64,000 nucleotides of DNA from an uncultured Nitrososphaeraceae archaeon (GCA_963779615.1 CAVZZA010000003.1:224001-288000), one strand, 5' to 3'. Positions 8,276 to 40,892 are shown, counted from the first letter of the stretch. Notes: generated by a model from the letters alone, not told the origin. Numbers and translations are program-made.

Positions 8276-8320
8276 TGGGCCCAAGGGGTTTAGTAATAGG
8301 TACATTACGGGCCTAAATTT
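8276..8320 (-). repeat. tRNA(CAT) 3'-end derived att-like repeat, type A
   Basis: + strand tgggcccaaggggtttagtaataggtacattacgggcctaaattt; matches tRNA 40819- (tgggcccaagggggttt) and the 39345 copy. Confidence 0.8.
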
Positions 8321-8384
8321 TCGGTTTTATAATTGCGACACCAATCCTTATCATCTTACCATCACTTTTTTTGGTTATTGCCAG

Positions 8385-8620
8385 ATCACATGGAAAAATT
8401 CTTGTCACTTTATCACAATGCAATGAGCAACGCACCTAATCCACAGGTTGTAGCCAATGAGACAATCCCAGCAGTAGAAATGGTTTAATGGAAATAAATC
8501 CTAATTCACTCAAAGAGTAACAGCGGAAATGGCTCCAAAAAATATTCTAAATTTAAAAAGGACCCATCGGAAAACGAATTTCACGAAATGCTAATGGAAG
8601 ACCAGCTAAAGCAGGCCAAA
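8385..8620 (+). pseudogene. Decayed 3' fragment of an SDR paralogous to 37832-38749
   Basis: ggaaaaattcttgtcactttatcacaatgcaatgagcaacgc...aaatattctaaattt aligns by eye with 38525-38750. Confidence 0.8.
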
Positions 8621-8833
8621 TTATTTCCATGGCACTTCATCATTTAATGATTATCATGGCAAGAAAGCAAAAAGCAAGCGAACAGAGCCGGTCCTGATAC
8701 TTTAATATATTTAACAAAGAACATTACATTGGTTATTTTAGACAGAGCACAAATACGCATTAATGTTGTAAATATGCCATAGCTCCAAGATACACAAATA
8801 AAAATGGGCTTGTGTTAACAAGTATGGTAATCG

Positions 8834-9891
8834 TTAATGTTCTTGAAAAATTAATGAAATTGGAAAATGATCACTAAACCCCTCCTTATTCATATAGCTT
8901 GGTTTCCCGCATTTTGTGGGTCTCCCGAATTTTTTGGGTACCTCATATGAATATCTTTCCTCATATAGAACGTATTCCCCTATCTTTTTGTTTACCTTAA
9001 CTGAACCATCTTTGACGCCTACTTTATTCACAAAAGCTATGGATTTTGAAACCATAAACTGGTCAAGCATATTGGGATAGGTTGTATACTTGTCGAAACA
9101 AGGGTCTGGTTCTTTTTTACCAAAGTAATAGGTAGCGAGACCCCGATTAACCAAAGACCACATCAGATTATAAAAGAAAGGAACATGTTCTGATTTTTCC
9201 AGTTGCTCTTTATAAGGGGTAGAAAACGCATAATCCATCAATGATCTGCTAAATGGCATGTCATTGAAGTCTCCCATTACTATTATTGGAATATCGTCTC
9301 CAAGTTCTTCCAAAATGCGTTTATGGAAATAGGACAAAGCATCTGCAGCAGCTATTCTATAAGGTTCAGTGATAAGTTCTCCGATAGTCCTGGACGGCCA
9401 ATGATTTCCTATTAGTACCTATTTGAGTACCCTGACGTTTTTATCCTAAAGTTTACTTGTAGGATGTTACGAGTAGCTTCCTCCCTTAAGACTTGGTGTG
9501 AAAATACAAGGTCTTTACCCGTTTGATTGTGTTTTGCTATTTCAAATTTTGAAGCGTCGTAAATAAATCCAACTTCAATGCCCCTTTTGTCGTCATATTC
9601 CTCATGCACAACCTGATAATTCCGAGGAACGAAGTTCTTTATTTTAGTTACCAACTTATTTACCACGGGTCCATCTTCCACCTCACAAACTCCTATTATG
9701 TCTGGACCATTGCCATGGTTCATCTTTGATATGATTTTTGCCAGTTGAGAGATTTTGGTAATTAGAACTTTTTCGTTCCACCCTATTAGCTCATCTTTTA
9801 AAACCTCTTTTAACCGGCTAGATCTTTCAGTAGAGTTTTCTATATCAAAAAGATTTTCTACATTCCACCACGCTACAAAATATTTATCCAT
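8834..9891 (-). pseudogene. Endonuclease/exonuclease/phosphatase family, frameshifted near 9410
   Basis: WWNVENLFD and GVCEVE in the upstream ORF; GDFND, LDQF and SDHFP in the downstream ORF; NHWPSR bridges the two in a shifted frame. Confidence 0.85.
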
Positions 9892-10189
9892 GTTTCAAAT
9901 AAAAAGACGCATATGGTATAAAAATAACAAAACAGTATAGTTTTTTTTATGATTTTACAGTAATGCTTTGTTGCACGGTTACATTAAATCGTTTCTGTTG
10001 GCGATTTGATTTATCACCCTAATACACAATGATAGCATAATTTAACGCGATTTTATAAAAATACGGCCCAGGTTTAGATGTTTTTTGAGTCATGTAACAA
10101 GCATAGCCAATACACCTTTGCAATTAAATGGATAGGAAAGGTTTCTTGGCAATATCTTTTACCGTGAATTTTGTGTTTCATCCAAAAAT

Positions 10190-10560
10190 GGTTCTATGAT
10201 TGCTGTAAACTTTTCTGGATGTTGCCAAAGATAACTACTTGATGATTTTTTGGTAGTTCTTGTAAATATATGAGGGCCAAACACCCATTACATTACCACT
10301 TCCACTAATTAGTAAAACAGGTTCACCGTTACCAAACATCTTGCATGCGATGTCTATGTCTCCAACATGGACTTTTTCTGTCTGCATGTCCTGCATTTTC
10401 ACCGAAATTTTTATACTGAATTCACTAGGTTTTTATCTGATTTACTGAAGACCGCATTAGGAGTGTCAATATAACCATTATTACTGATCAAGGAACTAGG
10501 GACAAGAGGCACAATGCGAAAACAAGAAGAAAGACTGATCTTGTGACCGCATTCTTCCTA
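10190..10560 (-). pseudogene. Secreted alpha/beta hydrolase remnant with a large internal deletion
   Basis: Minus-strand translation KVHVGDIDIACKMFGNGEPVLLISGSGNVM...QHPEKFTAII. Confidence 0.6.
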
Positions 10561-10809
10561 ACAGGCATATTAACGGGCGTGACTCTCGATGCGCCATGCG
10601 TTATTTAAGCATGCAGGATTACCAATTTGGCTGGTCATAAGGATTCAAGGGCTAGCCCTGTTACTGATAACGGGATTATCAATTAATAACCACTTGGAGA
10701 TTCAGAAGTAGAAAAAAATTTTCCTACAATCCTCATAGTCAATCTATGTGTACAATACAATAGAACAATTTTACTGAAAATCTTAAGGGAAAGATCTTTA
10801 AATCCACAT

Positions 10810-11329: not shown

Positions 11330-11352
11330 ACAGCAATCCCATAAAATTACAA

Positions 11353-11397
11353 TAGCTTTAAGGGATTTGGTAACAGGCATATCATTATGAGTCCACA
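11353..11397 (-). repeat. Degenerate tRNA-derived att-like repeat, type A
   Basis: tagctttaagggatttggtaacaggcatatcattatgagtccaca versus 39345 tgggcccaaggggtttggtaacagacataatgcgggtccaaa. Confidence 0.65.
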
Positions 11398-11840
11398 CTA
11401 AAGTCTTGTAAATCAGTCTTTTCCAAACGTGTTTTTTGCCAATTTACTTGCAAACAACAAACCAGTTTTTTAACATACACTTATTATTTGCAACTAATTC
11501 AATTCTCATTTTAGGGACCCATCTAAAAAGATGCAGAAATGCACTGGACTGAGTGGGATCAGCATTGGTATTGAATCCTAGCAAAGATCCAACAAATCTG
11601 AGTATGATTATCGCTAAAATGGACATCATCTGGTAAAGAATTGTTTTTGCATCAAATTTTTTGAAGAGTAATTAATATAAACCACATTGAATAGAAAATA
11701 TGAGTGTCATCCGGTATTAATTTGTGTAATTTTGAATTGCATCAACCTTGAAAATTTGATTTGTTGGGAAATCTGTAAATATGCCATATATTGCTAAATT
11801 TAATAACAATCCAGAAATACAAATGATTTCATGGTAACTA

Positions 11841-14799: not shown

Positions 14800-14919
14800 G
14801 CATACTTCTCCTTAGTTAGTTATTTACCTAAGTTGTTTATTAAAAATAGGATAAATAAGTAACATACCTTTCTCTAGTATTTAATAACCAAATTACTACA
14901 TTAGCGCCATGTCTTTTCT

Positions 14920-15750
14920 TTGCTTTCATATTACAGGTTATCCAAAAATTACTGCTATTCAAGTCATTCACCGGCTTAACAGTGCAAGAGTTCGACGATA
15001 TTTTCATTAAAGAGAAAGTAAAAAAAACGGCAAGCATGAGATACAGCGTTCGGAATACAAAAGAAAGAAAATAGAGAAAGAAGTTGTGGTACAGGCAGAC
15101 CTTTTAAATTCGATATAGAAACATCTTTTTAATGCTGCTTGCGTATTACCGTTTGTAAATAACCTACACTCTGGCTGGTTTTTTGTTTAATTTGGAACAG
15201 ACCAACATTTGCATGGACATACAAAAGATTGAAGGTTTGATAAAACAATGCATTTCTATACCTAAAAAACCACCATATAACTAAGGGTTGAAAACCACTG
15301 AAGAAGTGAAAAAGTATTTTCCAGGCTTTCTATCTTTCGCATATTCCACAGAACAGCTGATACCAAGACCTGTAGACAAAAAAGAAAAAGAAGGTGTTCC
15401 ATTTAGGGAGGAAGAAAAGGATACTGCAAAGACACAGATTATGGTTAACAAATTAGGTTTCAACATTCACAAAACAATCCTTAAGAAAGGATAGACATGA
15501 TGACTATTATATATACAAGAAGAATCATCATCCAACTCCCAAACAAGTTGTCAATGTGTTTGATCTAGGTGTGGAGAAACACTACGCAAGGCAAATATCA
15601 TTGTTACCACATAAATAGAAGAAAGATCAAGAGTCATCTGCAGGAGAAAAGGAATGCAAAAAAAGCCACTCTAAAAAGAGAATAACGATAGAGTACACCA
15701 TTAGTAGATTGAAAAATAAAAGGATACTTGCAGAAGTGTTTAGAAACAAA
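14920..15750 (+). mobile_element. Heavily decayed IS5-like (DDE_Tnp_4-type) transposase remnant
   Basis: Fragments FKSFTGLTVQEFDDI, EEVKKYFPGFLSF..STEQLIPRPVDK, KTQIMVN, RITIEYTISRLK spread over several frames with stops. Confidence 0.7.
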
Positions 15751-15977
15751 TCGAAAAATATTGGTTTTTTAGCTGTGTTACACTATTTGCCTTCTTTATA
15801 AACTAATCTGACCATTTGTTTCCAAATTAGATATCTTTATTTCATTTATGCCTTAATAATGAAAATCGCGCTGACATAAAAAATATGTTTAAAATATAGT
15901 AACAAAAGTAAATCCAGTCAACAGTATGGTTACTATAATAGTATTGAATCGAGAGTCGCATAACCAATTCAACATTA

Positions 15978-17677: not shown

Positions 17678-18080
17678 TCTTGCTTGCGTATACTTTGATT
17701 AGAAGAGCAACTCGGTACGTTCAAAATTCAGAAACATGTGAGAAAATATGTCAAAGTGGTCGCAATTCAAGATGCACTGCAGTTTACAATAATATCCATA
17801 ATGGCAGAGTTTGCACCAGGTTTTTCGCCCCATTCAGCAAAAAAAAACAATTGGTTTGTTTTCAAGACGATTGAATGTTATTCAAAAGCCATTTTTGGCG
17901 ATGTTTTGTCACTATTTAAGGTAATAATTAAATTATTAGACAAAATCATACCAAATATTCATCTCAACATATGCAGTATTAATGTTACTCATATCTTTTT
18001 AGGTTAATGTTTTCCAATATAATAGCAGGTATTAACAAGCAAACTCCTATTATACCAACAAATGTATCTAAATACCAACT

Positions 18081-18290
18081 ATGAACAACACCAAAAAAAT
18101 TTTATTGATTACAGCCATAGCGTCGTTATTAATAATGGGAACAAGCATAATTCCGATTCAGTCATATGCAGACATGGATGACAAAAATATAAAAAAAAAT
18201 AGTGATCTTGATTCAAAAATAAATGCAAACTCAGGGACAGAAGAAAATTGGGCAAACCAGCAAATGGACCAAGACAATTTCTGTTGTTAA
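18081..18290 (+). pseudogene. Truncated member of the secreted QDNxC-module family
   Basis: Signal peptide ending QSYA; stops at QDNFCC. Confidence 0.7.
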
Positions 18291-19566: not shown

Positions 19567-19900
19567 GAACTACGAGCCACACACCTCAATTTTTTATTGC
19601 AGATCTAACAATTATTTTCTTCAGCTACTAGCAGTTGCCAAGGTTTCTCTAACCTATAGAGAGAATTGGACTTTTTTCGATAACAAATTCCTTGATTTGT
19701 AAATAATCAAGAAAAATTTGATCTCCTTGGATACTGCCTTTTCGATTCTGGGGGTCAGCGCATAAACAAACTTTTGATATGGAGAAAGATAAGCATTCTC
19801 ACAAGTCTGAGAAGGCGAAGAGAAGGCGAAGGGTATGGCGACAAGGCCTCAATTTATAACATGGTTTATCTCGGGCCTATGAAGGAGAAGAGATATCTTG

Positions 19901-19950
19901 TTGGCCAAGGGGGCTAATGCCGATATCGGCTCTATATGAGATTCTAATTT
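19901..19950 (-). repeat. Degenerate tRNA-derived att-like repeat, type C
   Basis: ttggccaagggggctaatgccgatatcggctctatatgagattctaa aligns with the 34386 copy. Confidence 0.65.
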
Positions 19951-20440
19951 TATACAAGCTGTAGAGATTAAGTTTTCAATGAAAAAAAATGGAAAATCAA
20001 GCAACCAAAGAAAAACTTGTTTTCAATCTGGCATGGCTAAAGTAGGAGACACCCAATTACCATTATCACGTCTCATAAAATACAATTCTCTTTTTTATCA
20101 AGGTGTAAAAAAGTACAAGTTATTGTAGTATCCATTATTGCTGTTGAAGGTGTAATGGATTATTAAATTGGTAGATAAAGTTTTACTATATATTCATGCA
20201 TTCAATTGCAGTTCTAATATTATGCTCATTTTTTTGGGTTAACAAACCCCAAGATAATGCCTTGCTGCATAACTATGAAATTCGTCAATTTATGATAGAG
20301 CACATATCAGGATAATGCGAATATCGATTATTTCCCTTGAGGAAATAAAACCAGCACGTCTAAAAAACACAAAAATCTGAGTTACGCAACAAAGCACAAG
20401 ATAATATCACGCATTAACTAGCCTATTTTAATTATATCCA

Positions 20441-20501
20441 TGAATGTATCTAAATTTCAACTATGAACAATATAAAAAATATCTTATTGATGACAGCCAT
20501 A
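20441..20501 (+). pseudogene. Stub (upstream region plus about 13 codons) of a QDNxC-family gene
   Basis: aatgtatctaaatttcaactatgaacaatataaaaaatatcttattgatgacagccata matches 18061-18119. Confidence 0.65.
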
Positions 20502-20561
20502 AAAAAGCAAACCAAAATCTTAAATCGCAAATTGAGTATCGTTGTCAAAATTTCATAACCA

Positions 20562-21118: not shown

Positions 21119-22162
21119 TCAATTGTGTTTGATGTCATTTTGCGTGGGTTTTTTCGGAACTTTTTTTTTCGTAACCATCAGAGCGACTCCAAGTAGGATA
21201 ATGACCATAGCTATGATTGTAGTAATTGTCAAATTTTCATGCAGAATAGCCCATCCCAATAATACCGCAATGACTGGGCTAACATATGCAAAGGTGTTTG
21301 CCAATGATGCGGATGTAACTCGAAGCAACCAGTAAAAGTCGGTAAATCCCACAATGGTGATAATAACTATCAGATAGATTTGCGCTATTAAAGACTGCAG
21401 TGAAATTTGCATTAAATCCAAATTGCGATATTCCCCAAATGCAAAACTAACAGCAGTCAACATTAACCCTCCAGAAATCATGATCATCCCTGACGACGCA
21501 AGGATACTGACAGGAAGCTTAGCCCTGGTGGAATATAGTGAGCCAATGGCCCATGAAATTGAACTTATTATTAGGGCCAATGTTCCAATGGGGCTCAGAT
21601 CTCCAGACCCAATAGATGGAGCAACAAGCAACATAAGGCCGCCAAATCCCGCAGCTAATCCGATAATCGTTGCTTTTGTCATGGATGGACCAATTGCCCC
21701 TTTTTTTATCCATCTATAGACAGCATATCCAATAATTGCAACCCATAACGGGATAGTGGAATTTAGCAGGCCAGTCATACCCGAGGAAAGATATTGTGCG
21801 CCCCAAGTTAGCAATCCTTGACCACCAAGAAACAAGGTAACCCCTAAAATCAGGCTATCTCCCCATTGCCTGAATGTTATATGTTCTTTAGTAGGCTTTT
21901 CAGAATCCAGAACTTGATCTTGCGCCCCTTGTGAGTGTTTTTGATTGTTACTGGTACTGCTATTGTTTTTGAATATAGTTTTGTTAACCTGAAGAAAATA
22001 AAATGTAAAGAGTATCGCCCCTGCAAATGAAAACCTTATGCCCGCGCTCAACAGAGGAGGTATCGTGTCGATGGCAACTTTGATTGCAAGAAAACTCGAG
22101 CCGTTGATAACCCATAGTGCAACCAAGATAAGCCAAATTTTAGATTGATGATTTAAGTTCAT
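21119..22162 (-). CDS. EamA/DMT family transporter
   Basis: About ten TM segments; WVINGSSFLAIK, PPLLSAGIRF and AYVSPVIAVLLGW motifs. Confidence 0.9.
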   Translation of the reverse strand: MNLNHQSKIWLILVALWVINGSSFLAIKVAIDTIPPLLSAGIRFSFAGAILFTFYFLQVNKTIFKNNSSTSNNQKHSQGAQDQVLDSEKPTKEHITFRQWGDSLILGVTLFLGGQGLLTWGAQYLSSGMTGLLNSTIPLWVAIIGYAVYRWIKKGAIGPSMTKATIIGLAAGFGGLMLLVAPSIGSGDLSPIGTLALIISSISWAIGSLYSTRAKLPVSILASSGMIMISGGLMLTAVSFAFGEYRNLDLMQISLQSLIAQIYLIVIITIVGFTDFYWLLRVTSASLANTFAYVSPVIAVLLGWAILHENLTITTIIAMVIILLGVALMVTKKKVPKKPTQNDIKHN

Positions 22163-23806
22163 TATATGGATAAACTTGCAATAAATATCATTTAATAATA
22201 ATGTTTTTTGTAATAGCCTTGTTGTGATTTTGGTATCAAATTTATCATGATTGTGCGGCTTTGATTTTTCACTCGGATGCCATAGCCATTTGTATTGGCA
22301 CCTGAAACTTTCCTGTTGTTTTGTCATGGTGATGAGGTTGGGTGTCATTTTGTTTCGCAGTTGCATTCTTTTCCATTTTGGTTTTGCCCTAATACATCGA
22401 TTACACGATTAGAATGACCTTGGGGATTTTTGTGACTGGACCGTGGACACCAACACCAAATTTGACTAAAATTCATAGCCCTTGGCCGGTATGCACATGG
22501 CAATACCAAATAGAAGACGCACATATGATATCTTGTCTTTTTATTCTGCAACCTGTCTTATTGACATTTTCGTAAGAATTCAACTATCTTTTTAACATAT
22601 AATTGATTTCTGTTGTCGTGGCAAACCTATGATACTTTTTTTAATCCTACTGCCAAATAACTGGATAAACAGCGAGTTTAATCTTTATGAAAGTTATCAC
22701 ATAAAGAGTCGAGAATCATTAAACAAATAGTATTGCAAGATGACATTATTATATTCCATTAAATTTTATATTTATCCGACTATTCCACAGCTATATTAGC
22801 GACAATCCATAGTGTCGGATAGTAATAACGAAAATCAGCTGATCAAAAGTGGAATTGACAGTCAACAAAAAGGGAACACAAAACCAAGTGGAAGAGAGGT
22901 AAAGGCAGGCTGGTAAAGCAATGCCGCCCTGTTACTATTTCTAATTAAGAGAGGCATTTGTAATGGCAGGGGAAGAACACTAAAAACCTTTAAGCATTTA
23001 TTGATATCCTGTATGATATTCAAAACAAGAACTCAATCCCTTTTAACTATCATAAATATCTCTTTCATTACAGGTCTCGTCTAGCACTAGAAAATAGAAT
23101 ATCTTCAAAACACAAATAATCAGAAAAAAATAGGTTGAAAATGGCAAAACGGATAATCCAGTAATCCGATAATAAACTCAAATTAGCGAAGCATCAATTT
23201 TAATGCGTACTGAAGCATTTAACTGGTAAAACCATTGTGTCGATTAAAAATAATGTCGTAAAGTTATACAAAATAATTGAATAACATCCATCTTGTTGGT
23301 TTTGGAAGATGACTCCATAATTTCTATTTATCCTCTACTTTTTTATAATTTGACATGTATATATTTTATTTCTTAATTAAGAACGCAATTTGCAAAATTC
23401 ATTGTGCCAAAAGGATTGTCTTTTATTGTGAGATGGCCTTCACGGTTTATTGTTGGATTAAAGGTAAAAGACATGGATTTGGATAGATTTTTCATACCTG
23501 TGTTTGGATTCATTCTTCCGACAGCCGGTAATGACCGTTTACTTATGATAAAAGAAGCGAAAAATATTGAGGAAAAACTATTGCGGTTTAGTAAACGTAT
23601 TTTTCTCAATCGCGTTCATAACTATTGCCAACAAGACCCCTCTCTTCGGAATTTGGAGTAATGTTTATGATCCAAAAAATCCTTTTCATTGCCGAATGTC
23701 ATGTCACATACCTCACATCTGTAAGAATTACCACCAGAAACCATTTCGGAAAATAATCTCAAAGGTATTATTTAACGGTTGAATAAATCGAAAGACATTT
23801 GCCAAG

Positions 23807-26628: not shown

Positions 26629-27159
26629 CTGTACCAATTGGAGTCTGTTTTTTTCACCACTAGTTGGTGTAAACCTAACCATAGGAACGACATTGCCGAC
26701 AAGTAACTGCACCAATCCACCCGTGAAATGCATTACCTGGGCCATTAGTTGGTGAAAATTGTATTGCATGGTTTAGGGTGTTACAATCACAATAGCAAAA
26801 CCCGGGCAGTTGATTGACTGTGTCTTCCATGGTTACCTGTGCAAATATACCATTTAGGTCAATTTCTTGACCTAGCGCCAAATTTAAATGGCATGTTACG
26901 CATTAACAATCTTGATTTTTTTGCCTTTGATTCAAAATTAATTGCCTGATAGCCCTTTTTTCCCCAGTTGTTTGGCCACGTAAACCTTAGACATTAAAAA
27001 ACCTTTCCAATCTTTTTTTGATACTTTCCTATGGTCTCTGGCGACTTGGCGCAAACAGATACATATACAAGCACCTGGTCCCTGATTTTTGTTTTGTTTT
27101 ACCAACTCTTTTCATATATCTTGGTTTTGTAGGATTCACGTAAAGGAACCGTTATTGGA

Positions 27160-27280
27160 ATGGGCCCAAGGGGGTTTGAGCATGGCAGGTAAGGGGTTCA
27201 ATAAACTCAATTACCAAATACTACTTATTTGAACATTCTTTAAAATCGAAACTACGGAATCCGTTTATGATAATTAGCCA
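27160..27280 (-). repeat. tRNA-derived att-like repeat, type B
   Basis: atgggcccaagggggtttga is identical over 20 bp to 40818-40837; the following ~100 bp resemble 38893-39010. Confidence 0.85.
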
Positions 27281-27429
27281 AGGGATCGGCAATAGACACA
27301 CTATTGATTCTTCCGGATCCCTGAAAAAAGGATAATGTTTTTCTTAGTTTTTGAATAAGGGTTTTCTTTTATATTGTGATAAATTGGCAAAACCATATTT
27401 ATGTATGGAACGTTGTGGATGACAAGTGA

Positions 27430-28190
27430 ATGGAAAATCTATTTTTTGGGACGCCGATGCTTGTGACAATTTTTAAACACACAAGAAAAATGGGCCAACA
27501 TACTGATTCACAAAAGAAAATGGACTGGAAACGAAAATATATTGGATGAGGGGCGTCGTTCAGGAAGGATTACAAAAATCCTTTCCAAAACAATTACAAT
27601 GGAAAAATTTATGCGGTTGATAATGATACCAATATGATTAAAAAGGCAACAGAGAACCTGGGTGTTGTTGAAAATGTGAAACTTGTCCAAACAGATTTGC
27701 TGAATATCGAGTCTGCCAACATGCCCATAAACTTGATGCAATATTCTCTATGCCGTTTTGCACTAGATATGGACCATTATAAGGTATTTGAAAATTTTTA
27801 CTGCCCTCTAAACCCAGGCGGAGAGATATTGATTCGATGTTGAGTTTATGGAATGTTAAAAAAGACGTTGCCAGAATCTGGCAAATTTTTTTCTGAATGG
27901 AAAATCGACTGGAATTATGCAAAACCTGCAGACAGAAAATATCTTATAGCAGGCAGGCTATGAAAACATTGAAGTTTACCTGACAGAAACCTAGGCAAAT
28001 TTCAATAGTAAAAATGATTAATTTATTTATTTGAAAACAGTGGACCTGCGACCATACCAAAGTACCTACCATCAGAACAATCACGACTTGATTTGCTAAT
28101 ACAGTTATGCCATATAAGGAAAAACATCAACCTGATTTTTGCTGGAAACTGGATTATATACGCCTAACCGTTTCAGCATCGAAATAAACT
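27430..28190 (+). pseudogene. SAM-dependent methyltransferase (Tam-like), multiply disrupted
   Basis: WDADA, KWTGNENILDEGRRSGRITK, LNPGGEILI, WKLDYIRL in shifting frames. Confidence 0.65.
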
Positions 28191-28216
28191 AATGGATAAA
28201 GAGTCAAGAAGATATA

Positions 28217-28810
28217 ATGATGGAGCCTCAGAGAATAACAATTACAGGTAATGACATTATTTTGCGCCCTCCATCCACGACAGATTTGGAGGGTTTGCTC
28301 GATGCGGCAAAAGATGGAGAAATTTGGAAGAATCCATATGCAGTGTTTCCTAGTATTGGGGAAATGCCCGGTTATTTACAGGACTTGCTAAAAGACACAA
28401 AAACAATACTACCCTTTATAATAGATCTAAAAGAATCAAACAAGATAATAGGCTCAACACGATTCTTCAACATTGACCATGATAATTACCGTGTAGAAAT
28501 TGGCCATACTTGGATTACCAAATACTATCGCAGAACGGCAGTTAACACCGAAGCTAAATTTTTAATGCTGCGACATGCTTTTGAAAAGATGGATTGCATT
28601 GCAGTGGAGTTAAGAACCGATGTGTTAAATGATACATCTAGAAAGGCAATTGAAAGGCTTGGAGCAAAACAGGATGGAATATTAAGAGGTCACAAGATAA
28701 TGAGAGGATGAAGGATCAGGGACACTGTATGCTACAGCATCATAAAGGAAGAATGGCCAACCATCAAGGAAAAACTTTTGACAAAGATGATTAGTCATCA
28801 TGAGAGATAA
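28217..28810 (+). pseudogene. RimJ/RimL-type GNAT acetyltransferase with an in-frame TGA at 28709
   Basis: EIGHTW, NTEAKFLML, ERLGAKQDG; RIRDTVCYSIIKEEWP continues in frame after the TGA. Confidence 0.8.
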
Positions 28811-29316
28811 GAAATCCCATTAATTATAACAATAAAAATTTTGATTATAAGAAAATTCCACATATCTTTAAAAATCAACAATGGTTTTTGTACTTCAGAA
28901 AAGGGGTTATTGCTGTGCTGCAGCGTAGTTTCCCTTGTTCTTTTTGTGTTTTTTTTTGCTAAAGCATCACCTATTTCAACTACTGGACTGACTAACAAGG
29001 AGAATGTGACCACTATTGCGATTGAGGCAAAGAGGAGTTTTGTGTTTTTTTTTTGATTTGGATATGCTTCATTTTATTCATTCGTTTACTACTATGGAAA
29101 AATGAGATGACATTTGCTAACTAACTGCAATACTATAATATTCTAATGGTTTTAGAAAATTCATGGTCTCTTTGACGGAAATACGGTAACATGACGGGTA
29201 TTGGATGTGATTTGACTTGGAATATAGGACATGGGATTTGGCAAGTTAAGGCGGTTCAGTTGATGCCTTAGAATCACCCATAGTTAACCATCATTTTTGA
29301 GGTAAAATAGCAGTTT

Positions 29317-29365
29317 TGAGCCAAAGGGGTTTGAGGAGGCAGGTAAAGGGGGTTCAACAACTTTC
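29317..29365 (-). repeat. tRNA-derived att-like repeat, type B
   Basis: tgagccaaaggggtttgaggaggcaggtaaagggggttcaacaact. Confidence 0.75.
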
Positions 29366-30066
29366 TCATCAGATGCCAATCTAATTAATCCTTTTCCTGA
29401 TTTGAAGAATCGAATTAAAATACAGTGGATAAATCCAGGATTGATTTGTTATAAAATATCAGTGATTGATTTGTAGAAAAGTCTGAAAAGACTTTACAGA
29501 TCCATAACGTTAAATATTTACATACCAAATGAAAATGTCATCCAATCCCTTGAATTCCAAAACTCTAAAACAATTCTTTGGGTTTGGTTCACTATAATAC
29601 ACAATATATCCATAACAACAACAGCAACAAGTTATTCTGATCTCTCAAATGTCATGGAAAGGCCCGTCATTCTACAGAACAATTGGCTGTGGTTATTATG
29701 GACAAATACAGTATTTGATATTAGGCCCTTGACCATCATTCGTTTCACAATAACCAATCAAAACTCCAATTATTCGGTCAATCCAATCACCTGAAATTGA
29801 TGGATAGCCAAACTAACAAAGCTATTTCGCCAAAATAGCGAAGGAGAAGACCATATAACACTGTGCAGGGTTTTTGTCCCGTATCCTCATTCGACAATTA
29901 AGATGGGGTTGGGTTTATGAACAATTGCTTTAATAGTAAATACACCCACTGTTTTAGATTGATTATGGCTTGGGGGTGTAACTATTATCCTTTCTTTAAA
30001 ATATTTTAACCTATTCCAGATTTATCAAGATTTAGCATTGCACAAAAAAATAAAAAAATATTGAAG

Positions 30067-34385: not shown

Positions 34386-34437
34386 ATGGGCCCAAAGGGC
34401 CTGGTGCCGACATCGGTCTTTAAGGCAGGTTCTAAAA
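34386..34437 (-). repeat. tRNA-derived att-like repeat, type C
   Basis: atgggcccaaagggcctggtgccgacatcggtctttaaggcaggttctaa. Confidence 0.75.
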
Positions 34438-34526
34438 TGTCAGGGGATAACGCCAAACTTAAAGATTATGGATATAATCGTTATTTGTTCTGTGTTTATT
34501 TCAACTTTGCAAGTGCACTTATGCTG

Positions 34527-35503
34527 TCAGTCTACTCTTACACTTTGAATCATTTTTTCGCAATGTTCATCTGTCCAAACCCCAACACTTTGTAATCTAC
34601 CCTTCCATTTTTCTTCTGTTTTATCCACACACACACTTGTTAATGCATTAAAATATGCTTCTGTGACAGCAGCATTGTTTTGTTTGTCGATGTTTTCAGT
34701 CACCTGAGTAAAGTTAACATTATTTATAGCAAATTGTGAGTTATTTTTTAGGTCAGTTACATATTCTTTCTGTAGATCTATGTCTTCTTTTTGTACCCAT
34801 CTTACCATGTCCAGGCACGTAAACATCAAACTCATATCCCAAAGCTTGATCATAAGATCTCATCAAAGCAGGCACTTCTGGCGTAGCGGCAAGGTGTTTC
34901 CATGGCACCTCCCCTGGAGATAGTTGATCAACTGCCATTAAGACTTTTTGTTCCGGATTGTATATGAAAATGTTACCTCTTTGGTGGTACTGCCCAGGAT
35001 ACGTCAATTGCAATGTTTTATTTCCAAATGTCAGAGTAGTGTTGTCTACAAATGTTTTTGTTGGGACAGGTCGTTCAGGATCATTAGCCATTGTCAGAAT
35101 ATCCGCAGTATTCTTTTCTGCCATTATCTCTACATCAGGTTGAAAGAGATGTGCAGATCCAACATGGTCTCTGTGGGCATGACTATAAATAAGATATTTT
35201 ATGGGTTCGTCTGTGACCTCGGATATAGTCTTTGAGGATTCTATCACCTATACTGGGTGGTGCGTCAACTACAATAACACCCTCGCCAGTGGTCAAAAAC
35301 ATGACGTTGTATCCACCTGCCGATATAACATATACTCCATCTTTTATCTCCTGCAAATCGTAGTCGTTTTGAGCAACAGACCGGATGTTGCTTATATCCC
35401 CCATGGAAATCAAAAACATAAAAGTCAAAACTATACCTGCAAACGATGATACTAATCTCGTATACTGTATAGATAAAAATATGTTAGATTTCATATCAAA
35501 CAT
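34527..35503 (-). pseudogene. Secreted MBL-fold hydrolase in three frame fragments
   Basis: VVDAPP, SHAHRDHVG and VPGHG motifs over ORFs 35183-35503, 34753-35247 and 34527-34853. Confidence 0.85.
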
Positions 35504-35750
35504 TTTATCATATTTGTAAAACTTAATAAAGATTTTAAAATTATAATCACATGATTATAGTTTTAGGCAATTATCCGGTTGAATTTCTAATTTTTTTAAT
35601 ACCAGGATATACAATTTTGACAGCCATCACTTTCTCTTTGTAACGGTAAACATAAACATATTTTAAAAAATTTCCTTTTCATACTACGTGATCAACAGTT
35701 ATCAATAGCTCTAACAATTTATCACCGTGATAAATATATACACATAGGAA

Positions 35751-35795
35751 CGGGCCCAAAGGGTTTGGCAATAGGCATATTACAAGTCTGATTCT
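35751..35795 (-). repeat. tRNA-derived att-like repeat, type A
   Basis: cgggcccaaagggtttggcaataggcatattacaagtc. Confidence 0.75.
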
Positions 35796-36076
35796 TCAAT
35801 ATTTTTACTTGCTATTAACATTAAATCAAAGCATGTTGTACTAAAAATGACACTGAAAGTTGATTCAATAGGCCTTTGAATTTTATTATCACCAATCAAT
35901 TTCTTCATATTTTAATAGGGAGATTTTTAGACAATACTCGCTATTTCCATTTCTTTTATATCCCATCACTTTTACCATTTCAGTTGCATGCAACCATGTC
36001 AATCTCTTGTTTGCATCATCGCCCATTGGGAGAAGACCGAAGAATATAATGACAAGATGCAGATTGGGAAATAGTG

Positions 36077-36989
36077 ATGAATACACCGTTGGCAGGCAAG
36101 GTTGCCTTGGTCGCCGGAGCGACCCGTGGAGCGGGACGAGGGATAGCTGTGCAGTTAGGAGCGGCCGGAGCGATCGTCTACGTTACTGGGCGTACGACAC
36201 AGTCAGAACGATCGGAAATGAGGCGACCAGAGACGATTGAAGAAACCGCGTCTCTCGTGGATGAAGCCGGCGGCCAAGGGATTGCAGTCCAAGTAGACCA
36301 CCTCATCCCTGACCAGGTGCGCGCGCTTGTGGCTCGCATAAGAGGCGAACAGGACGCCCTGCACGTTCTTGTGAATGATATCTGGGGCGCCACGACGATG
36401 GAATGGAACAAATCGGTCTGGGAATCCTCTTTGAATATTGGGCTGCGCACTCTGCGTCTGGGTGTGGACACGCACGCCATTACCAGCCACTTCGCGATAC
36501 CGCTACTCATCAAGTCACCCGGTGGTTTGGTTGTTGAAGTGACTGACGGAACTGATGAGTACAACGCGACCAACTACAGAGTCTCATTCTTCTATGACCT
36601 GGCCAAGGCATCAGTAAATCGAATGGCGTTAGCACTTGCTCACGAGTTGCAGCCATACAATGCAACGGCGGTATCACTCACTCCTGGTTGGCTGCGATCA
36701 GAGGCCATGCTCGAGTACGTACGGTGTCACCGAATCGAACTGGCGGGATGCAACAAAGCGCACACCTCACTTCGCTATTTCTGAAAGTCCTGCGTTCGTT
36801 GGCAGGGCCATAGCGGCGCTTGCACAAGATCCCAACGTATCGCGTTGGAACGGAAAGTCGTTGTCCAGCGGACAACTTGCGAAAATCTACGGGTTTACTG
36901 ATCTAGACGGTAGCCAGCCCGATTGCTGGCGGTACGTCACCGAAGTTCAGGACGCAGGCAAACCTGCCGATGTAACCGGATATCGATAA
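36077..36989 (+). pseudogene. SDR family oxidoreductase, frameshifted near 36715
   Basis: VAGATRGAGRG, LVNDIWG, YDLAK; C-terminus SESPAFVGRA...DLDGSQPD in another frame; GC-rich. Confidence 0.85.
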
Positions 36990-37831
36990 CACCTGTGGAA
37001 GGCGACCTAGTTCTGTTATGATCCTCTTCACAAGCATGGCGTAGACGAAACTAGTAGCAAATGTTTATTTCTTTCGGCCGTCGAGCTAAAGAGGTTCCTA
37101 ATGAAATCTATCTCATTTGTTTTTGATTGTTTGGCTGTAACTCAGAATACACTTATCCCTTTTTGAAAAAAGTCCTTCAATGATGAAGCTATCAGGCTTG
37201 GGGTATTACAGATATCGGTTCTCTATAAGAGATTACAATACCAATATGATAATGTTTGATTTAAGGTGTACTTAGAACAGGTTTATGACCGGATTGAATC
37301 CAAACGTATTTGCATAAATTATATGAAAATCTAGTATTTTAAAAATTGTAAACCCAATATTTTGGTTAAATTTGACATGGCATAGGGTAGTAACAGATGA
37401 TTTTGAGGATGGATTCAGCGGAAACAATGATAAAATTTGCCGTGATGATCGCAATAATCACTGCCAAGAAAAAATACAGGGCCTTCAATAATCCACTTTT
37501 TCAATGACTATCAATATTTCTTATAAAATTTTTTTTGCAAATAATTTTTATATGTCTGTCATAAGAAGAGTTTTCAGATATAGGGAGTATCCATATACTC
37601 AATCATGGTGACAAGAGAAATTATAACTTATTTAGGTATTTAATCACAGGCCACCGCTATAAAGTAAGAGTATTCCACCTAACATTAAAAACAGAAACTA
37701 AAAAATAGGCAATGTTGAGGCCATCTGTAAGAAAAATTCTAAATTTATCTGGCTGTTGCCATATAAAATAAATATTTGGGCCATAATAAAACATATCTGC
37801 TTTTGACTATTACCGTAGCGTTGGATAGATA

Positions 37832-38749
37832 ATGGTAAAAAATCAAAAGGTGGCGGTTGTAACGGGAAGTTCATCAGGCATAGGATTTGAAACATCCTTG
37901 GCACTTGCAAGGAAAGGTTATGTTACCTACGCTACTATGAGGGATTTGCGAAAATCCAAAAACCTGGAGGGAATTGCCCATGATGCAAACGTTTCGCTGA
38001 AAACTATCGAGATGGACGTTGACCATGATCATTCGGTTGGGAACGCAATAGACAAGATTGTTGGTGAATCCGGCCGGATTGATGTGCTGGTCAACAATGC
38101 AGGGTTTGGTCTTTTTGGATCGTTGGAGGATCTTGAGATGGAAGAGATAAAAAAGCAATACGAAACAAATGTGTTTGGTGTAATAAGGGTGACCAAAAAT
38201 GTCCTTCCAACAATGAGACTCAGACAGAATGGAATCATAGTCAATATTAGCTCCATAGCTGGATTGGCAGGCGTTCCTTCCCAATCCATTTACTGTGGAA
38301 CGAAGTTTGCAGTTGAGGGCTTTAGCGAATCCCTGTCTTTTGAGGTTGAGCCTTTTGGGATAAAAGTGATACTTGTTGAACCGGGGGCAATAAACACGGA
38401 ATTTGCAAAGGATTTGATAGTGCCAACCAACAGGTATGGAGTTGGCAAAAATGCAGAATATGTCAATCAACCCGTTCATAAAGACAATGGGGATAATTTG
38501 TTGTCCTCCTATAGCAACACCATAGGAAAATTCTTGTCATTTTATTACAAGGCAATGAGCAACGCTCCCCACCCTGAGGTTGTTGCCAATGAGACAATCC
38601 GAGCAATAGAAAAAGTTTCTGATGGAAGCAATGCCGAACCTATTCTGAGGGTAACAGTTGGAAATGACTCTAAAAAGTATTCCAAATTAAAAAAGGAACT
38701 ATCAGACAGTGAATTTCATAAAACACTAAGAGAGGATTTGTTAAGGTAG
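37832..38749 (+). CDS. SDR family oxidoreductase
   Basis: TGSSSGIG, NNAG and YCGTK motifs. Confidence 0.92.
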   Translation: MVKNQKVAVVTGSSSGIGFETSLALARKGYVTYATMRDLRKSKNLEGIAHDANVSLKTIEMDVDHDHSVGNAIDKIVGESGRIDVLVNNAGFGLFGSLEDLEMEEIKKQYETNVFGVIRVTKNVLPTMRLRQNGIIVNISSIAGLAGVPSQSIYCGTKFAVEGFSESLSFEVEPFGIKVILVEPGAINTEFAKDLIVPTNRYGVGKNAEYVNQPVHKDNGDNLLSSYSNTIGKFLSFYYKAMSNAPHPEVVANETIRAIEKVSDGSNAEPILRVTVGNDSKKYSKLKKELSDSEFHKTLREDLLR

Positions 38750-38892
38750 GTTGAACTATTTTCAGTTGAGTGCCTTTCTTTTGAGATTATCATAACAAGA
38801 GGTTAAAAAGCCCCGCGTGAGAGCCTAAATCTATTTTAACATTCAAAGACAAAGGGTTCTGACGATACAGGGGCTCAGTCACTATTTCAGCT

Positions 38893-39010
38893 TTGAATAA
38901 GGGGGTTTAAGCAGGATAGGTAAATGGGTTCAATAACTTAATGCATAGTTGCAGTTTGATTTTAACCTTTAAATCAAAAGTAAAATCCGTATATGAGACA
39001 AACTAGCTGA
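38893..39010 (-). repeat. Degenerate tRNA-derived att-like repeat, type B
   Basis: ttgaataagggggtttaagcaggataggtaaatgggttcaataact...aatccgtatatga. Confidence 0.7.
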
Positions 39011-39344
39011 AAGAATAATCACCACTTCGTCCATCTCTTTTGCCATAACCGCATTCTCAAGTTTCTGGCAATTGCATTTTTTCTGATTAAACGGATTTAT
39101 GATTTTTGCTTTCTTCTTTATCGTCATCAATGTCGTATTCGGTATAAACTATTTTTGGCATTCTCGATAGTATGTAATTGAGTTTATTAGCGTTTGCCTT
39201 AAATTCAATAGAAGAATATGGTGTGAACTTGATGAGAATCTTTCACACATAACAATATTTACTAAAAAGCCTGAAAACGATTTTATAACAATTGGAAAAG
39301 GTATACCCTTTAATGGTATTATAGAAATGATCCCTTGTGGTTAG

Positions 39345-39390
39345 TGGGCCCAAGGGGTTTGGTAACAGACATAATGCGGGTCCAAATTTG
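39345..39390 (-). repeat. tRNA-derived att-like repeat, type A
   Basis: tgggcccaaggggtttggtaacagacataatgcgggtccaaatttg. Confidence 0.8.
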
Positions 39391-40083
39391 CCGTTGCATA
39401 AGTCCCAACACCCACCATGAAAAGTTGTTTGGTGTCAAACTGAGGTGCAGGATCTGATTTGACATGCAGTATAAATGGAATAACCATATCATAGTCTGTC
39501 CATTGATCTCAATAATCAGTTTTTTAGTCCTTCAAAAAATTTTTGCCAATTTTGCTTTTATTCTGTTTTTTTCCATAGATATGATATGGGGAATTATGGC
39601 GTTTTCTGCATCCATAGAGGCACAGCACTGTCTTGCCGTCGGTGCTGAATCGATACTCCGCTATCCCATACGACAAAAGCGAAAGGGCAAAAAGTAAAGT
39701 TTTGGGTTTTGCTATTGTATGCGTTTTTTGTCGAATTGAAAACATCGATAAGGTCGGATTTGACATGACTTTAAAATCTACAATAGTTTTAGATGAGATA
39801 CCATAGAACACACCTTTTTGATAACATTAGAAAAACATGAAACGTGAGAGGGAATCCCTGCATACATGAATGGATTCCCATCTATGAATTGAATCATTAG
39901 TTGGGTGAACAGAGGGCAGAAACATCTAGCTAAATATCTACAATGGGCGGCATCAGAATGGGTTGTTCACACCGAGTTATCCGCGACCACTTTTAAAGCC
40001 AAAATTTTTAGATTCTATCAAGGCCCCTGAAATATTCAAGTATCGATAAATACTATTTTGCCTATATCATGAAATGACACCTT

Positions 40084-40845
40084 ATGCAAAATATTGGCGA
40101 TAAAATAGTCTATGACACCATGGAGGAAATCCTGAATCCTTCGCACACGGCATTGGTGCTGTGGGACGCCATAGACGCATTCACAAAAATGACTTTCAAC
40201 AGGGAGGAATTCGTCAGGAACCTGAATAATCTTGTGGAGGCTGCGCGTAAATCAAACGTTCCGGCATTCTTTACAACAATTCAGATCCTGCCAAAACGGT
40301 TCGAGTCTTCTGCTAACATTTACACCATGGGCAAACTTGGCTTTGACCGCCTGTTTGAACAGATTAAATCAGAAGCGATGGAATTCACAATAAAACCGAG
40401 ACAGGACGAGACGGTAATACACAAGCACACCGCAAGCATATTCATAGACACTGGCTTTGAGCGGATGCTCAGGAGCGCCGGCATTGTCACAGTTCTCTTC
40501 ACCGGCATTGCCACGGAGTGTGGAATAGAGTCCAGCGCCAGGGATGCTTTCAACAGGGGATTCTATTCGGTAGTGGCCTCAGACTGTGTTTCTTCACCAT
40601 ACAAAGAGGGACACGAAAGATCGATTGAGAACATGAAGAACCTCTTAACCGTCACAGAGTCAAGAGAAGATCCTAAAAGTTTGGTCAAAACTCTAGAAGC
40701 AGAGCATCCAACCCCCCATGCTTTGTCTCCATTCCTGTTTTCCTCATTGTTACTCGAGGAATTTGTCGTTGGAAAGACAATGAATAATTTTGAACCTTGG
40801 CTTTTGGCAAATTTATCATGGGCCCAAGGGGGTTTGAACCCCTGA
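40084..40845 (+). CDS. Isochorismatase-like cysteine hydrolase; natural end probably near 40697, a frameshift extends the ORF antisense into the tRNA
   Basis: TALVLWD, KHTASIF, GIATECGIESSARDA; the alternative frame gives ILKVWSKL*. Confidence 0.8.
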   Translation: MQNIGDKIVYDTMEEILNPSHTALVLWDAIDAFTKMTFNREEFVRNLNNLVEAARKSNVPAFFTTIQILPKRFESSANIYTMGKLGFDRLFEQIKSEAMEFTIKPRQDETVIHKHTASIFIDTGFERMLRSAGIVTVLFTGIATECGIESSARDAFNRGFYSVVASDCVSSPYKEGHERSIENMKNLLTVTESREDPKSLVKTLEAEHPTPHALSPFLFSSLLLEEFVVGKTMNNFEPWLLANLSWAQGGLNP

Positions 40846-40892
40846 CCTACCGGTTATGAGCCGGTCGCTCTACCAGGCTAAGCTATGGGCCC
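40819..40892 (-). tRNA. tRNA with CAT anticodon, probably tRNA-Ile2
   Basis: GGGCCCATAGCTTAGCCTGGTAGAGCGACCGGCT-CAT-AACCGGTAGGTCAGGGGTTCAAACCCCCTTGGGCCCA folds as a cloverleaf; the GGGCCC acceptor stem is typical of archaeal Ile tRNAs. Confidence 0.92.

Follow-up and report, generated by a model that had tools for sequence, protein, structure and literature searches.

A probable eroded tandem array of tRNA-targeting integrative elements at a tRNA-Met gene of an uncultured Nitrososphaeraceae archaeon

Positions 8276-40892 of the window, the whole 64,000-nt stretch of DNA analysed here, most probably represent an eroded, CIME-like tandem accretion array of tRNA-targeting integrative elements situated in a hypervariable region. 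The repeats that subdivide this interval are supported as having arisen through site-specific integration into the 3' end of a tRNA-Met gene and as marking the borders of serially added DNA, a reading based on the break of synteny at the tRNA 3' end and on the identity of the repeat flanks with the arms present at tRNA-Met in congeners. The pile-up of old mobile elements at a tRNA site in a soil archaeon would follow a known route of genome growth.

Junctions downstream of tRNA-Met

The anchor of the series is tRNA-Met(CAT), encoded on the minus strand at 40819-40892 (ARAGORN; Rfam RF00005, 70.7 bits), and the att core, as read from the sequence, is the last 19 nt of this gene, covering the T-loop, the 3' T-stem strand, the 3' acceptor strand and the discriminator. 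The initial annotation reported nine same-orientation copies of the tRNA 3' end. All nine positions, from 8276 to 39345, were found to be occupied by members of the repeat family, in a single orientation (+ strand) and downstream of the tRNA-Met 3' end, far in excess of chance expectation. In the window, the 19-mer TGGGCCCAAGGGGGTTTGA has one exact match besides tRNA-Met itself, at 27161; allowing up to three mismatches it gave four matches against 0.03 expected, and the 12-mer GGGCCCAAGGGG with at most one mismatch gave six against 0.17 expected, all of them on the + strand. A repeat search retrieved the family (D8) as seven copies of 20 nt with at least 75% identity, at 8275, 27160, 29315, 34386, 35750, 39344 and 40818. 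The cores at 11353 (which reads TAGCTTTAAGGGATTTGG), 19901 and 38893 are weak, and these copies were recognised via their flanks against flank-type profiles (nhmmer E 1e-12, 3e-21 and 1e-20, respectively) that had themselves been built in part from the same three copies. The repeats are more than copies of the tRNA 3' end: each is a junction composed of a left arm (types L1, L2 and L3), a core that matches the tRNA-Met 3' end over 13-20 nt, and a right arm (types A, B and C).

Adjoining tRNA-Met, at 40780-40818, is a left arm L3 common to two congeners, G011 and G016, and 83% identical over 60 nt to G011. The nearest junction, at 39345-39390 (E 3e-27), combines an L1-like left flank with right arm A (TGGGCCCAAGGGGTTTGGTAACAGACAT...), has no mismatches to the degenerate pattern of this arm, and bounds a 1.5-kb, one-gene block, while the next, at 38893-38942 (D12; E 1e-20), carries the degenerate core TTGAATAAGGGGGTTTAAG and right arm B and forms the right end of a duplicated SDR module. 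Right arm A recurs in partly degenerate form at 35751-35795 (E 2.5e-20; three mismatches to the pattern), right arm C, with the palindrome GTGCCGACATCGG followed by a TATA-like stretch, is found at 34386-34440 (E 2e-24), and right arm B follows the degenerate core TGAGCCAAAGGGGTTTGA at 29317-29366 (E 7e-19). At 27160-27211 (E 6e-26), left arm L2 and right arm B are joined through a core that agrees with the tRNA at all 20 of 20 nt. Further out are a junction with right arm C and the degenerate core TTGGCCAAGGGGGCTAA at 19901-19950 (E 3e-21), one with right arm A in which the core is almost lost at 11353-11400 (D14; E 1e-12), and one with right arm A and an L1-like left flank at 8276-8332 (D7; E 1e-28), the leftmost in the window.

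The sizes proposed for the intervening blocks (about 3.1, 8.5, 7.3, 2.2, 5.1, 1.4, 3.1, 0.45 and 1.5 kb) were as stated, and the claim that copies are missing from the gcv side and from the right of the tRNA was borne out by a profile search (E < 0.01), which found none at 1-8000 of the window or to the right of tRNA-Met. The implied confinement of the repeats to 8276-40892 did not stand: the variable region extends past the 8276 junction, left of the window the + strand carries additional copies at C3:117207, 122129, 163450, 172363, 173572, 177682 and 177771, and more copies of the repeat families are present on the + strand at C3:785-827 kb.

Arms and integrases in the genus and in this genome

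The relatives compared are congeners, one genome per species, with no close strain among them. In 13 of the 15 congeners with a full tRNA match, homology to the window begins no more than 10 nt from the tRNA 3' end, and in the remaining two it runs 40 nt further. The DNA left of the tRNA is mosaic in all five relatives checked and the right flank is collinear (G012 and G015 among them); apart from an EamA gene, no cargo in common with relatives was found at this locus. At true tRNA-Met genes, L1 is present in G001, G002, G003, G004 and G017, L2 in G005, and L3 in G011 and G016. The right arms, in their three types, and the left flanks are conserved across species, and the type A arm, joined to differing tRNA-like cores across the genus, was detected with the degenerate pattern in 25 of 34 genus genomes against 0 matches with a reversed control.

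In several of these relatives the left arms directly adjoin integrases. In G011, L3 is the 40 nt separating the att core from the start of the integrase gene, which is split into two ORFs (PHROG integrase, E 1.5e-6) and belongs to an 18.2-kb element with a type B copy at its border. The tRNA-Met integrase of G005 is in frame to the contig end and 73% identical to an intact integrase of the present genome (G000). The integrase ORFs beside L1 in G001, G002 and G004 are frameshifted or truncated and resemble one another; that of G002 corresponds to the N-terminal part of a ~430 aa family named site-specific integrase or XerD in the sources (249 matches, best 84% identity).

Within this genome, the same arms flank integrases at tRNA-Arg(GCG), tRNA-Arg(TCG) and tRNA-Arg(TCT), and intact integrases of the same family are located at tRNA-Arg(GCG) and tRNA-Ala. 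Other tRNAs bear similar arrays, with same-strand 3'-end copies downstream of Gly(ccc) (four), Ala(cgc) (three), Ser(gga), Val(tac) and Arg(tct) (two each). At E < 0.01 there are at least 25 type C copies, which occupy both strands and all five contigs. Copies whose core is of the tRNA-Arg(TCT) type are dispersed over both strands at a great distance from the tRNA itself, and the core CGGGCCCGGAGGGCTTCG is the exact 3' end of this tRNA with its own downstream flank. Simple tandem integration leaves the scattered type C junctions on both strands unexplained. An equal frequency of the motif genome-wide in both orientations, which the initial annotation regarded as contrary to its own proposal, was found in part, as the families occur elsewhere and type C occupies both strands.

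Integrase remnants and decay of the cargo

No intact integrase gene is present in 8276-40819, where PF00589 and PF16795 gave no match; the three PF00589 matches in the whole genome all lie elsewhere (C1:517644, C4:213194 and C3:386804), and the closest integrase-like ORF, at 41776-42801, is part of a separate element at another tRNA-like site. The earlier statement that no integrase is recognisable holds for intact genes, but truncated 5' ends were found directly left of two of the nine junctions, those at 27160 and 19901. The first, on the minus strand at 26948-27112, comprises ~55 codons of a tyrosine integrase as identified by nucleotide homology and tblastn, and has a reading direction that leads away from the junction at 27160, as in intact integrases beside tRNAs. 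The sequence at 26956-27180 aligns with the integrase region at tRNA-Met of G005 (74.6% identity over 228 nt, E 8e-35) and with the intact integrase at C4:214 kb (70% over 187 nt); tblastn gave E about 1e-3 to four paralogues in this genome, and an HMM search on stop-to-stop fragments was marginal (E 0.62). The second and weaker 5' remnant, also on the minus strand (19663-19803), shares 77% identity across 146 nt with C3:827026-827169, a segment that aligns with integrase residues 19-112 (E 1.5e-15), with a direct tblastn value of only E 0.29. The protein-level scores of both stubs are weak, and the case for them leans mainly on nucleotide homology. The other seven junctions carry no integrase trace at the nucleotide or protein level, so that seven blocks are bounded by junctions without integrase homology and two have stubs only, with attL and attR kept.

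The blocks range from 0.45 to 8.5 kb and contain several genes, pseudogenes and IS remnants; the genes lie on both strands without a common orientation, many are broken, and conjugation genes are absent from the array. ORFs of at least 150 aa cover 0.36 of the interval against a contig median of 0.565, placing it at the 3.4th percentile. Two blocks are very small, 0.45 and 1.4 kb, a counterpoint to tandem decay. The isochorismatase, metallo-beta-lactamase and two SDR genes previously listed as cargo are there, but the metallo-beta-lactamase-fold gene (34753-35503, minus strand; truncated or frameshifted) and the first SDR gene (36074-36989, + strand; frameshifted) are each split into two overlapping ORFs. 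In the block 27160-29317, to which a methyltransferase and a GNAT had been assigned, the GNAT was confirmed, but there were otherwise three ORFs of 69-94 aa with no Pfam match. An endonuclease/exonuclease/phosphatase gene in two ORFs (8834-9891, minus strand) is a probable pseudogene, and an SDR 3'-end-like fragment (8389-8675, + strand; D10) is 73% identical to 38521-38811. A decayed IS copy with no long ORF (14899-15759) has ~30 other copies in the genome at 66-74%, and a better-kept copy encodes HTH_Tnp_4 and DDE_Tnp_4 domains. A MITE-like repeat of ~140 nt at 20255-20401 (12 further copies, 82-88%) is inserted in a decayed member of a secreted-protein family that follows type C arms.

The 1.3-kb SDR module at 37638-38940 (+ strand), with an intact SDR gene at 37832-38749, is 99% identical to C3:176428-177729, which indicates a recent intragenomic duplication. 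Its right border is a type B arm at both loci, while at its left border there is no att copy and the other locus abuts a MITE-like repeat. Next to the tRNA lies the isochorismatase gene (40084-40845, + strand), whose homologues stop at residue 195 of 253; here the ORF continues through the L3 arm and then 27 nt into tRNA-Met.

Proposed origin, related systems and alternatives

Tandem accretion probably proceeded as follows. Integrating elements from a genus-wide tyrosine-integrase family would enter the tRNA-Met 3' end repeatedly and then decay. Each would be laid out as right arm (A, B or C), cargo, integrase and left arm (L1, L2 or L3), and each integration would duplicate the core of ~19 nt. 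A newcomer would enter the tRNA or an older att copy and displace earlier elements outward, so that in an internal repeat the core would be flanked by the older element's left arm on one side and the younger element's right arm on the other. Integrase genes would later be deleted or truncated, with stubs left at 27160 and 19901, cargo genes would be frameshifted, IS and MITE copies would invade, and pieces would be duplicated to or from other loci, the presumed end state being a string of att-bounded, integrase-less blocks equivalent to bacterial CIMEs. This scheme implies an order of events and a former integrase for every block; a decayed integrase in each block, which the initial annotation associated with ordinary eroded islands, was found at the end of two of the nine.

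Such a history has parallels in archaea and bacteria. The passages of PMC6563490 and PMC8371274 on thaumarchaeal integrated elements describe tandem integration and integrase loss after integration. As there (Krupovic et al. 2019, PMC6563490; review PMC8371274), tyrosine integrases and the 3' part of the tRNA would be involved here, and re-use of the site yields tandems; the att length has a median of 17 bp in the published elements (PMC6563490) compared with the ~19-bp core. The tandems treated in these passages consist of two elements (PMC6563490, PMC8371274), whereas the present array has nine junctions in 32 kb, more beyond, and more decay, although a similar array may be listed in these sources. 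The name 'Nitrosocosmicus' has 0 occurrences in PMC6563490, and the genus is unmentioned in the passages on tandem elements. CIME accretion is described in the review PMC5704250, which cites Pavlovic 2004 and Bellanger 2011 on CIMEs and accretion. In the relevant part of that review, bacterial CIMEs (cis-mobilizable elements) have lost integration genes and kept attL and attR, as the blocks have here, and build up one behind the other at a tRNA gene's 3' end, also as here; in ICE/IME accretion the incoming element enters the att site of the resident, and the same is proposed for tRNA-Met (PMC5704250). The array differs from bacterial CIMEs in its archaeal host, in its lack of conjugation genes and in that mobility of its blocks is only putative.

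With integrons the array shares ordered recombination sites in one orientation that divide short cargo blocks. Unlike in integrons, the platform lacks an intI-type integrase, attI and a common promoter, the sites are duplicated tRNA cores with integrase-proximal arms and not attC hairpins, and the blocks are multi-gene, with genes on both strands, pseudogenes and IS remnants. Membership of the integrons was rejected in the absence of IntI, attI and promoter and of single-gene, one-orientation attC cassettes. The integron-like platform capturing cassettes in trans, as initially proposed, was not upheld in view of the stubs, the integrase-proximal arms, the lack of a platform integrase and the pseudogenisation.

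An active accretion platform in a broader sense, at which integrase-less att-bearing cassettes or non-autonomous elements are moved at tRNA-Met att copies by an integrase encoded elsewhere, is improbable. It would accommodate the seven junctions without an integrase trace, the well-kept arms flanking tiny blocks (such as that at 39345) and the SDR module with a type B arm at its end at both loci, and a source of integrase could be the intact genes at tRNA-Ala and at tRNA-Arg(GCG), whose 3' end shows 4 differences from the Met core in 19 positions. In G004, moreover, L1-core-A junctions recur in a five-junction array across whose 40 kb no integrase was found, and in G006 a type A copy lies only ~460 nt from its tRNA. 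Frameshifted integrase N-terminal ORFs nonetheless directly adjoin tRNA-Met in G004, integrase stubs terminate two blocks of the present array, and every left-arm type is the arm that borders the integrase in ordinary elements, whether those of relatives or those at other tRNAs in this genome. Further against the platform, no integrase gene, promoter or attI-like site adjoins tRNA-Met, the genes are on both strands and often broken, the SDR duplication has no att copy at its left border, and neither an att repeat nor tRNA-Met was found within 3 kb of the isochorismatase at 31 loci in other genomes.

It is also doubtful that the arm-core-arm junctions are live sites at which integrases encoded at other tRNAs of this genome, whose cores differ at few positions, move integrase-less blocks in trans between tRNA-Met, these other tRNAs and secondary sites. 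If true, this would explain the scattered type C junctions and the two-locus SDR module with the same arm, and the ~150-kb tRNA arrays would be exchangeable accessory-gene stores in soil ammonia-oxidising archaea. Later trans-mobilisation of integrase-less blocks, as for CIMEs, likewise has a small probability; in its favour stand the seven blocks of nine without an integrase trace and the similar G004 array.

That the repeats are no recombination junctions but dispersed elements, regulatory or structured (for instance a small RNA or a promoter-operator module), with a mere resemblance to a tRNA end, is highly improbable: the wide distribution of type C, its perfect 10-bp palindrome CCGATATCGG followed by TATA-like stretches, its position ~330 nt upstream of a multi-copy secreted-protein gene in 6 of 16 examined copies and a possible GGGCC...GGTYC pairing common to types A-C, as judged by eye, would be in keeping with it, but variant cores are exact 3' ends of particular tRNAs, such as that of tRNA-Arg(TCT), the type A arm occurs on differing tRNA-like cores, arms sit at real tRNA genes beside integrases, the spacing to the next ORF varies from 199 to 731 nt, and no Rfam match to the copies was obtained even with the cutoff relaxed to E 1.

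Under the tandem accretion reading, one detail at the tRNA itself is of note as a counterpoint: the L3 arm is preserved exactly up to the expected integrase start, which modular exchange or a non-autonomous element fits as well as deletion.

Junction structure at the tRNA-Met gene

The sole tRNA of the window (G000:C3:224001-288000, contig C3 of the source genome, G000) is a tRNA-Met(CAT) on the minus strand at 40819-40892. Reverse-complemented, its positions 55-73 give the plus-strand 19-mer TGGGCCCAAGGGGGTTTGA. This 19-mer has exact matches at 27161 and within tRNA-Met itself; at up to 3 mismatches, four matches were found against 0.03 expected, and a 12-mer of the core at 1 mismatch gave six against 0.17, every one in both searches lying on the plus strand. 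The tRNA-end repeats reported in the initial annotation are thus real, non-random and in a single orientation, and both the location of the array (8276-40892) and the block sizes between repeats agree with the figures given there. The copies are not, however, the bare tRNA 3' ends that they were taken for, but junctions in which a core of 13-20 nt matching the tRNA-Met 3' end is flanked by a left and a right arm. Repeat grouping at ≥75% identity gave seven copies of 20 nt each, and the copies at 11353, 19901 and 38893, in which the core is nearly lost, were shown to belong to the family by their flanks. Searches of Rfam at gathering score, and also at E values up to 1, found no RNA family at the repeats, the tRNA itself being the sole match.

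Three right arms were distinguished, namely type A (..GGGGTTTRGTAAYAGRYAT..) at 8276, 11353, 35751 and 39345, type B (..GGGGGTTTGAGnnnGGYAGGTAAgGGGTTCAAT) at 27160, 29317 and 38893, and type C (..GGGGGCTAATGCCGATATCGGTTCTTTAAAATAGATTCTAAT) at 19901 and 34386. Recurrent flanks also occur left of the core and were labelled L1, L2 and L3; among congeners, L1 adjoins the true tRNA-Met in G001, G002, G003, G004 and G017 and L2 in G005, while L3 does so in G011, G016 and the source genome. At up to 3 mismatches, the type A arm was recovered from 25 of the 34 genomes of the genus (reversed control, 0 matches), its arm part being almost invariant and its core part varying to match other tRNA-like ends. 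In type C copies with the core CGGGCCCGGAGGGCTTCG, the sequence is that of the tRNA-Arg(TCT) 3' end in the source genome and of the flank downstream of that tRNA; junctions with this Arg-type core are dispersed on both strands. Since the arm is nearly invariant and the core varies by tRNA, the arms are sequence of the elements and the core is the end of whichever tRNA an element targets.

Two other readings of the left flanks were rejected. Interpreted as the C-terminal end of a gene lying upstream, the conserved flanks offer short ORFs only; as a native tRNA flank, L1 fails because its homology among genomes extends over just ~65-440 nt and is then followed by integrase remnants.

Within the type C arm, two TATA-like stretches come after a palindrome, CCGATATCGG, and in 6 of the 16 copies examined the arm leads after ~330 nt to a multi-copy gene for a secreted protein with a signal peptide (MNNTKNLLL...), a conserved FCYRGDDCEQANQGQQ motif and a low-complexity tail. 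This family is present as three decayed pieces within the window (19901-20502, 17884-18283 and 26132-26628) and at ~30 loci genome-wide, including a tandem cluster at C5:668-678 kb.

Integrases beside the arms and their remnants

In several relatives, the arms at tRNA-Met lead into integrase genes in various states of preservation. In G011, an integrase gene spread over two ORFs begins ~40 nt from the core; its product matches a PHROG integrase at E 1.5e-6 and Pfam PF00589 below threshold only, and the distance to a type B copy is 18.2 kb. The integrase of G005 starts inside the L2 flank and is 73% identical to an intact integrase of the source genome. Beyond the L1 flank, G001, G002 and G004 have mutually similar ORFs, truncated or frameshifted, of which that of G002 corresponds to the N-terminal part of a ~430 aa family named site-specific integrase or XerD in the sources. 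The identity of these L1-adjacent ORFs as integrases derives from a large protein search with the G002 ORF (249 matches at E ≤1e-5, best 84% identity) and not from PHROGs, which gave no match, or Pfam, which gave only a sub-threshold SAM-like domain; BLASTP against the SSV-type integrase ORF of the window returned nothing significant. G004 possesses an array of its own, with five same-strand junctions in the order B, A, B, A, A, in which no integrase was found over the 40 kb searched, and frameshifted integrase N-terminal ORFs directly adjoin its tRNA-Met. Within the source genome, members of these integrase families occur with the same flank types at tRNA-Ala(TGC), tRNA-Arg(GCG), tRNA-Arg(TCG), tRNA-Arg(TCT) and tRNA-Val(TAC), and intact integrase genes occupy C4:212978-214117 and C3:386263-387649. 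The junction arms belong to integrase-bearing elements.

The blocks between the junctions had been described as lacking any recognisable integrase, which is upheld at seven junctions but not at 27160 and 19901, where nucleotide homology reveals remnants. Left of the 27160 junction, a stretch of 225 nt is homologous to the L2 arm and the first ~50 codons of tRNA-associated integrases, with 74.6% identity to G005 over 228 nt (E 8e-35), 70% to the intact source-genome gene at C4:214 kb over 187 nt, and tblastn matches to four paralogues at E ~1e-3. Left of 19901, the stretch 19663-19803 is 77% identical to C3:827026-827169, itself matching integrase residues 19-112 (E 1.5e-15). Support for these stubs at the protein level is weak, because an HMM of the integrase family run against stop-to-stop fragments of C3:100-266 kb gave one marginal match (E 0.62). 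No integrase homology was detected at the other seven junctions or in the rest of the interval with PF00589, PF16795, tblastn, an L1-type query or nucleotide-level comparison, and the three PF00589 matches of the source genome all lie outside the interval.

Cargo, decay and mode of assembly

The Pfam-supported cargo of the interval comprises an EEP nuclease (split in two), a TPR protein, two GNAT proteins, DUF1348, RidA, an EamA transporter (21119-22366), an FMN reductase, a Peptidase_C70 (25191-25781; ORF of 196 aa, E 1.8e-15), a CN hydrolase, DUF899, an MBL-fold protein (two overlapping ORFs), two SDR genes (one of the pair in two ORFs) and an isochorismatase; the methyltransferase named in the initial annotation was not found in its block. 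Long ORFs occupy 0.36 of the interval, the contig median being 0.565, and the interval also holds a MITE-like repeat of ~140 nt and a dead IS (14899-15759), of which another copy, elsewhere, is better preserved and encodes HTH_Tnp_4 and DDE_Tnp_4 domains. The SDR module at 37638-38940 recurs at C3:176428-177729 with 99% identity, both loci sharing the same arm. The isochorismatase ORF runs 58 codons beyond the length of its homologues and reaches into the tRNA; a unit of att and isochorismatase was not found in other genomes, where none of 31 loci had an att repeat or tRNA-Met near the gene. Peptidase_C70 is an AvrRpt2-like papain-fold protease, a family unexpected in an archaeon. The EamA gene, the sole cargo common to this array and the complete genomes G012 and G015, has homologues there at 67-69% nucleotide identity, ~18-20 kb from tRNA-Met, a similar distance. 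Low GC as a mark of an island was rejected, the genome mean being 0.36 and the gcv cluster and the right-hand element being GC-rich exceptions.

The simplest account of the interval is serial integration followed by integrase loss and decay, that is, an accretion of remnants resembling the cis-mobilizable elements (CIMEs) of bacteria, in which integration genes are lost and attL and attR are kept. Elements would integrate serially at tRNA-Met and at older att copies, after which loss of their integrases and general decay would leave accreted CIME-like remnants. Precedents are offered by passages of PMC6563490 for tandem integration, the targeting of tRNAs and the shortness of att sites in Thaumarchaeota, of PMC8371274 for loss of the integrase following integration, and of PMC5704250 for the scheme of CIMEs and accretion. 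The feature is ordinary in kind, being an apparently new, large and heavily decayed case of elements integrated in tandem at a tRNA gene of an archaeon, and no new recombination system is revealed.

Mobilisation of the integrase-less blocks in trans, with integrases supplied from other loci of the source genome, is considered unlikely. The seven blocks without integrase trace, arms in some cases kept as well as those of active elements, the dispersal of Arg-core type C junctions on both strands and the presence of the SDR module at two loci behind an identical arm type would allow such mobilisation. The integron-like platform suggested by the initial annotation fails on platform integrase, attI, attC and gene orientation, the defining features of integrons.

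On this serial-accretion account, a large share of the accessory genome in these soil archaea is built up at a small number of tRNA genes, on which elements land, accumulate and decay, so that ordinary metabolic and detoxification genes stay behind in the chromosome as fixed parts. Being conserved throughout the genus, the arm-core-arm signatures could help to outline such regions and to detect integrase-less remnants in other genomes.

Extent of the variable region and neighbouring elements

On the right side of the tRNA, synteny of a TenA/PqqC-like gene holds in 5/5 relatives, and collinearity with G012 and G015 picks up again at C3:286.5 kb. Left of the tRNA, all five relatives have differing mosaic content over 40 kb, and C3:184-224 kb gives scattered matches only in five relatives. 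Among sequencing runs, partial matches only were obtained, at best a share of 0.40 as contigs. The mosaic stretch is ~90 kb long in G012 and ~56 kb in G015, and in both it ends at a block collinear with C4:45-87 kb of the source genome, beside tRNA-Ser(gct). The left 'flank' of the window is not core genome. Its first 8079 nt hold a glycine cleavage and lipoate cluster (Lpd-like oxidoreductase, LplA, GcvP2, GcvP1, GcvH, GcvT and LipA) with a GC content of 0.41-0.44 against 0.36 for the genome. GcvP (GcvP2) was not found in 12/12 congeners searched, nor LipA in 5/5; GcvP2 occurs in 5/8 other genera of the order at ~50% identity. The cluster looks like accessory cargo within the variable region.

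Further Met-type junctions, all on the plus strand, were located at C3:117207, 122129, 163450, 172363, 173572, 177682 and 177771, the copy at C3:122129 having an L1 flank 85% identical to that at the true tRNA-Met of G002. As these junctions reach 147 kb from the tRNA, the accretion region may be ~150 kb long. A second cluster of plus-strand junctions (types B, C, C, C, A) at C3:785148-827287, where there is no tRNA gene, terminates at 827264, where 24 nt match the 3' end of tRNA-Met, and has integrase N-terminal fragments left of 820485, 825607 and 827264; it could represent either a secondary site or a portion of the array that was translocated. Other tRNAs of the source genome, namely Gly(ccc) C3:1138829, Ala(cgc) C3:523250, Ser(gga) C5:409726, Val(tac) C1:518631 and Arg(tct) C4:251943, show a comparable pattern, the last 18 nt of each recurring 2-4 times on the same strand (≤2 mismatches) within ~5-37 kb downstream, several with SSV-type or tyrosine integrase matches alongside.

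A distinct integrated element, which G012 and G015 lack in their collinear stretch, occupies 41728-61124, right of the tRNA-Met locus. It is bounded by direct repeats of 208 nt (41782-41989 and 60882-61089, 99% identical), the first of which begins within a tRNA-Glu-like 3' piece (41762-41825); a tRNA was called at 41728-41824 by ARAGORN with introns allowed and not by Rfam. The element carries an integrase-like ORF of SSV type (41776-42801; PF16795 below cut-off at E 9.5e-5), a DDE transposase gene (42837-43730) and a gene for a Prim-Pol/D5 helicase (47705-49978), the last containing an 81-nt tandem duplication (48610-48771, 99% identical). Six tandem 144-nt units at 55075-56094 are coding repeats in the gene of an NHL-repeat protein (55203-56738).
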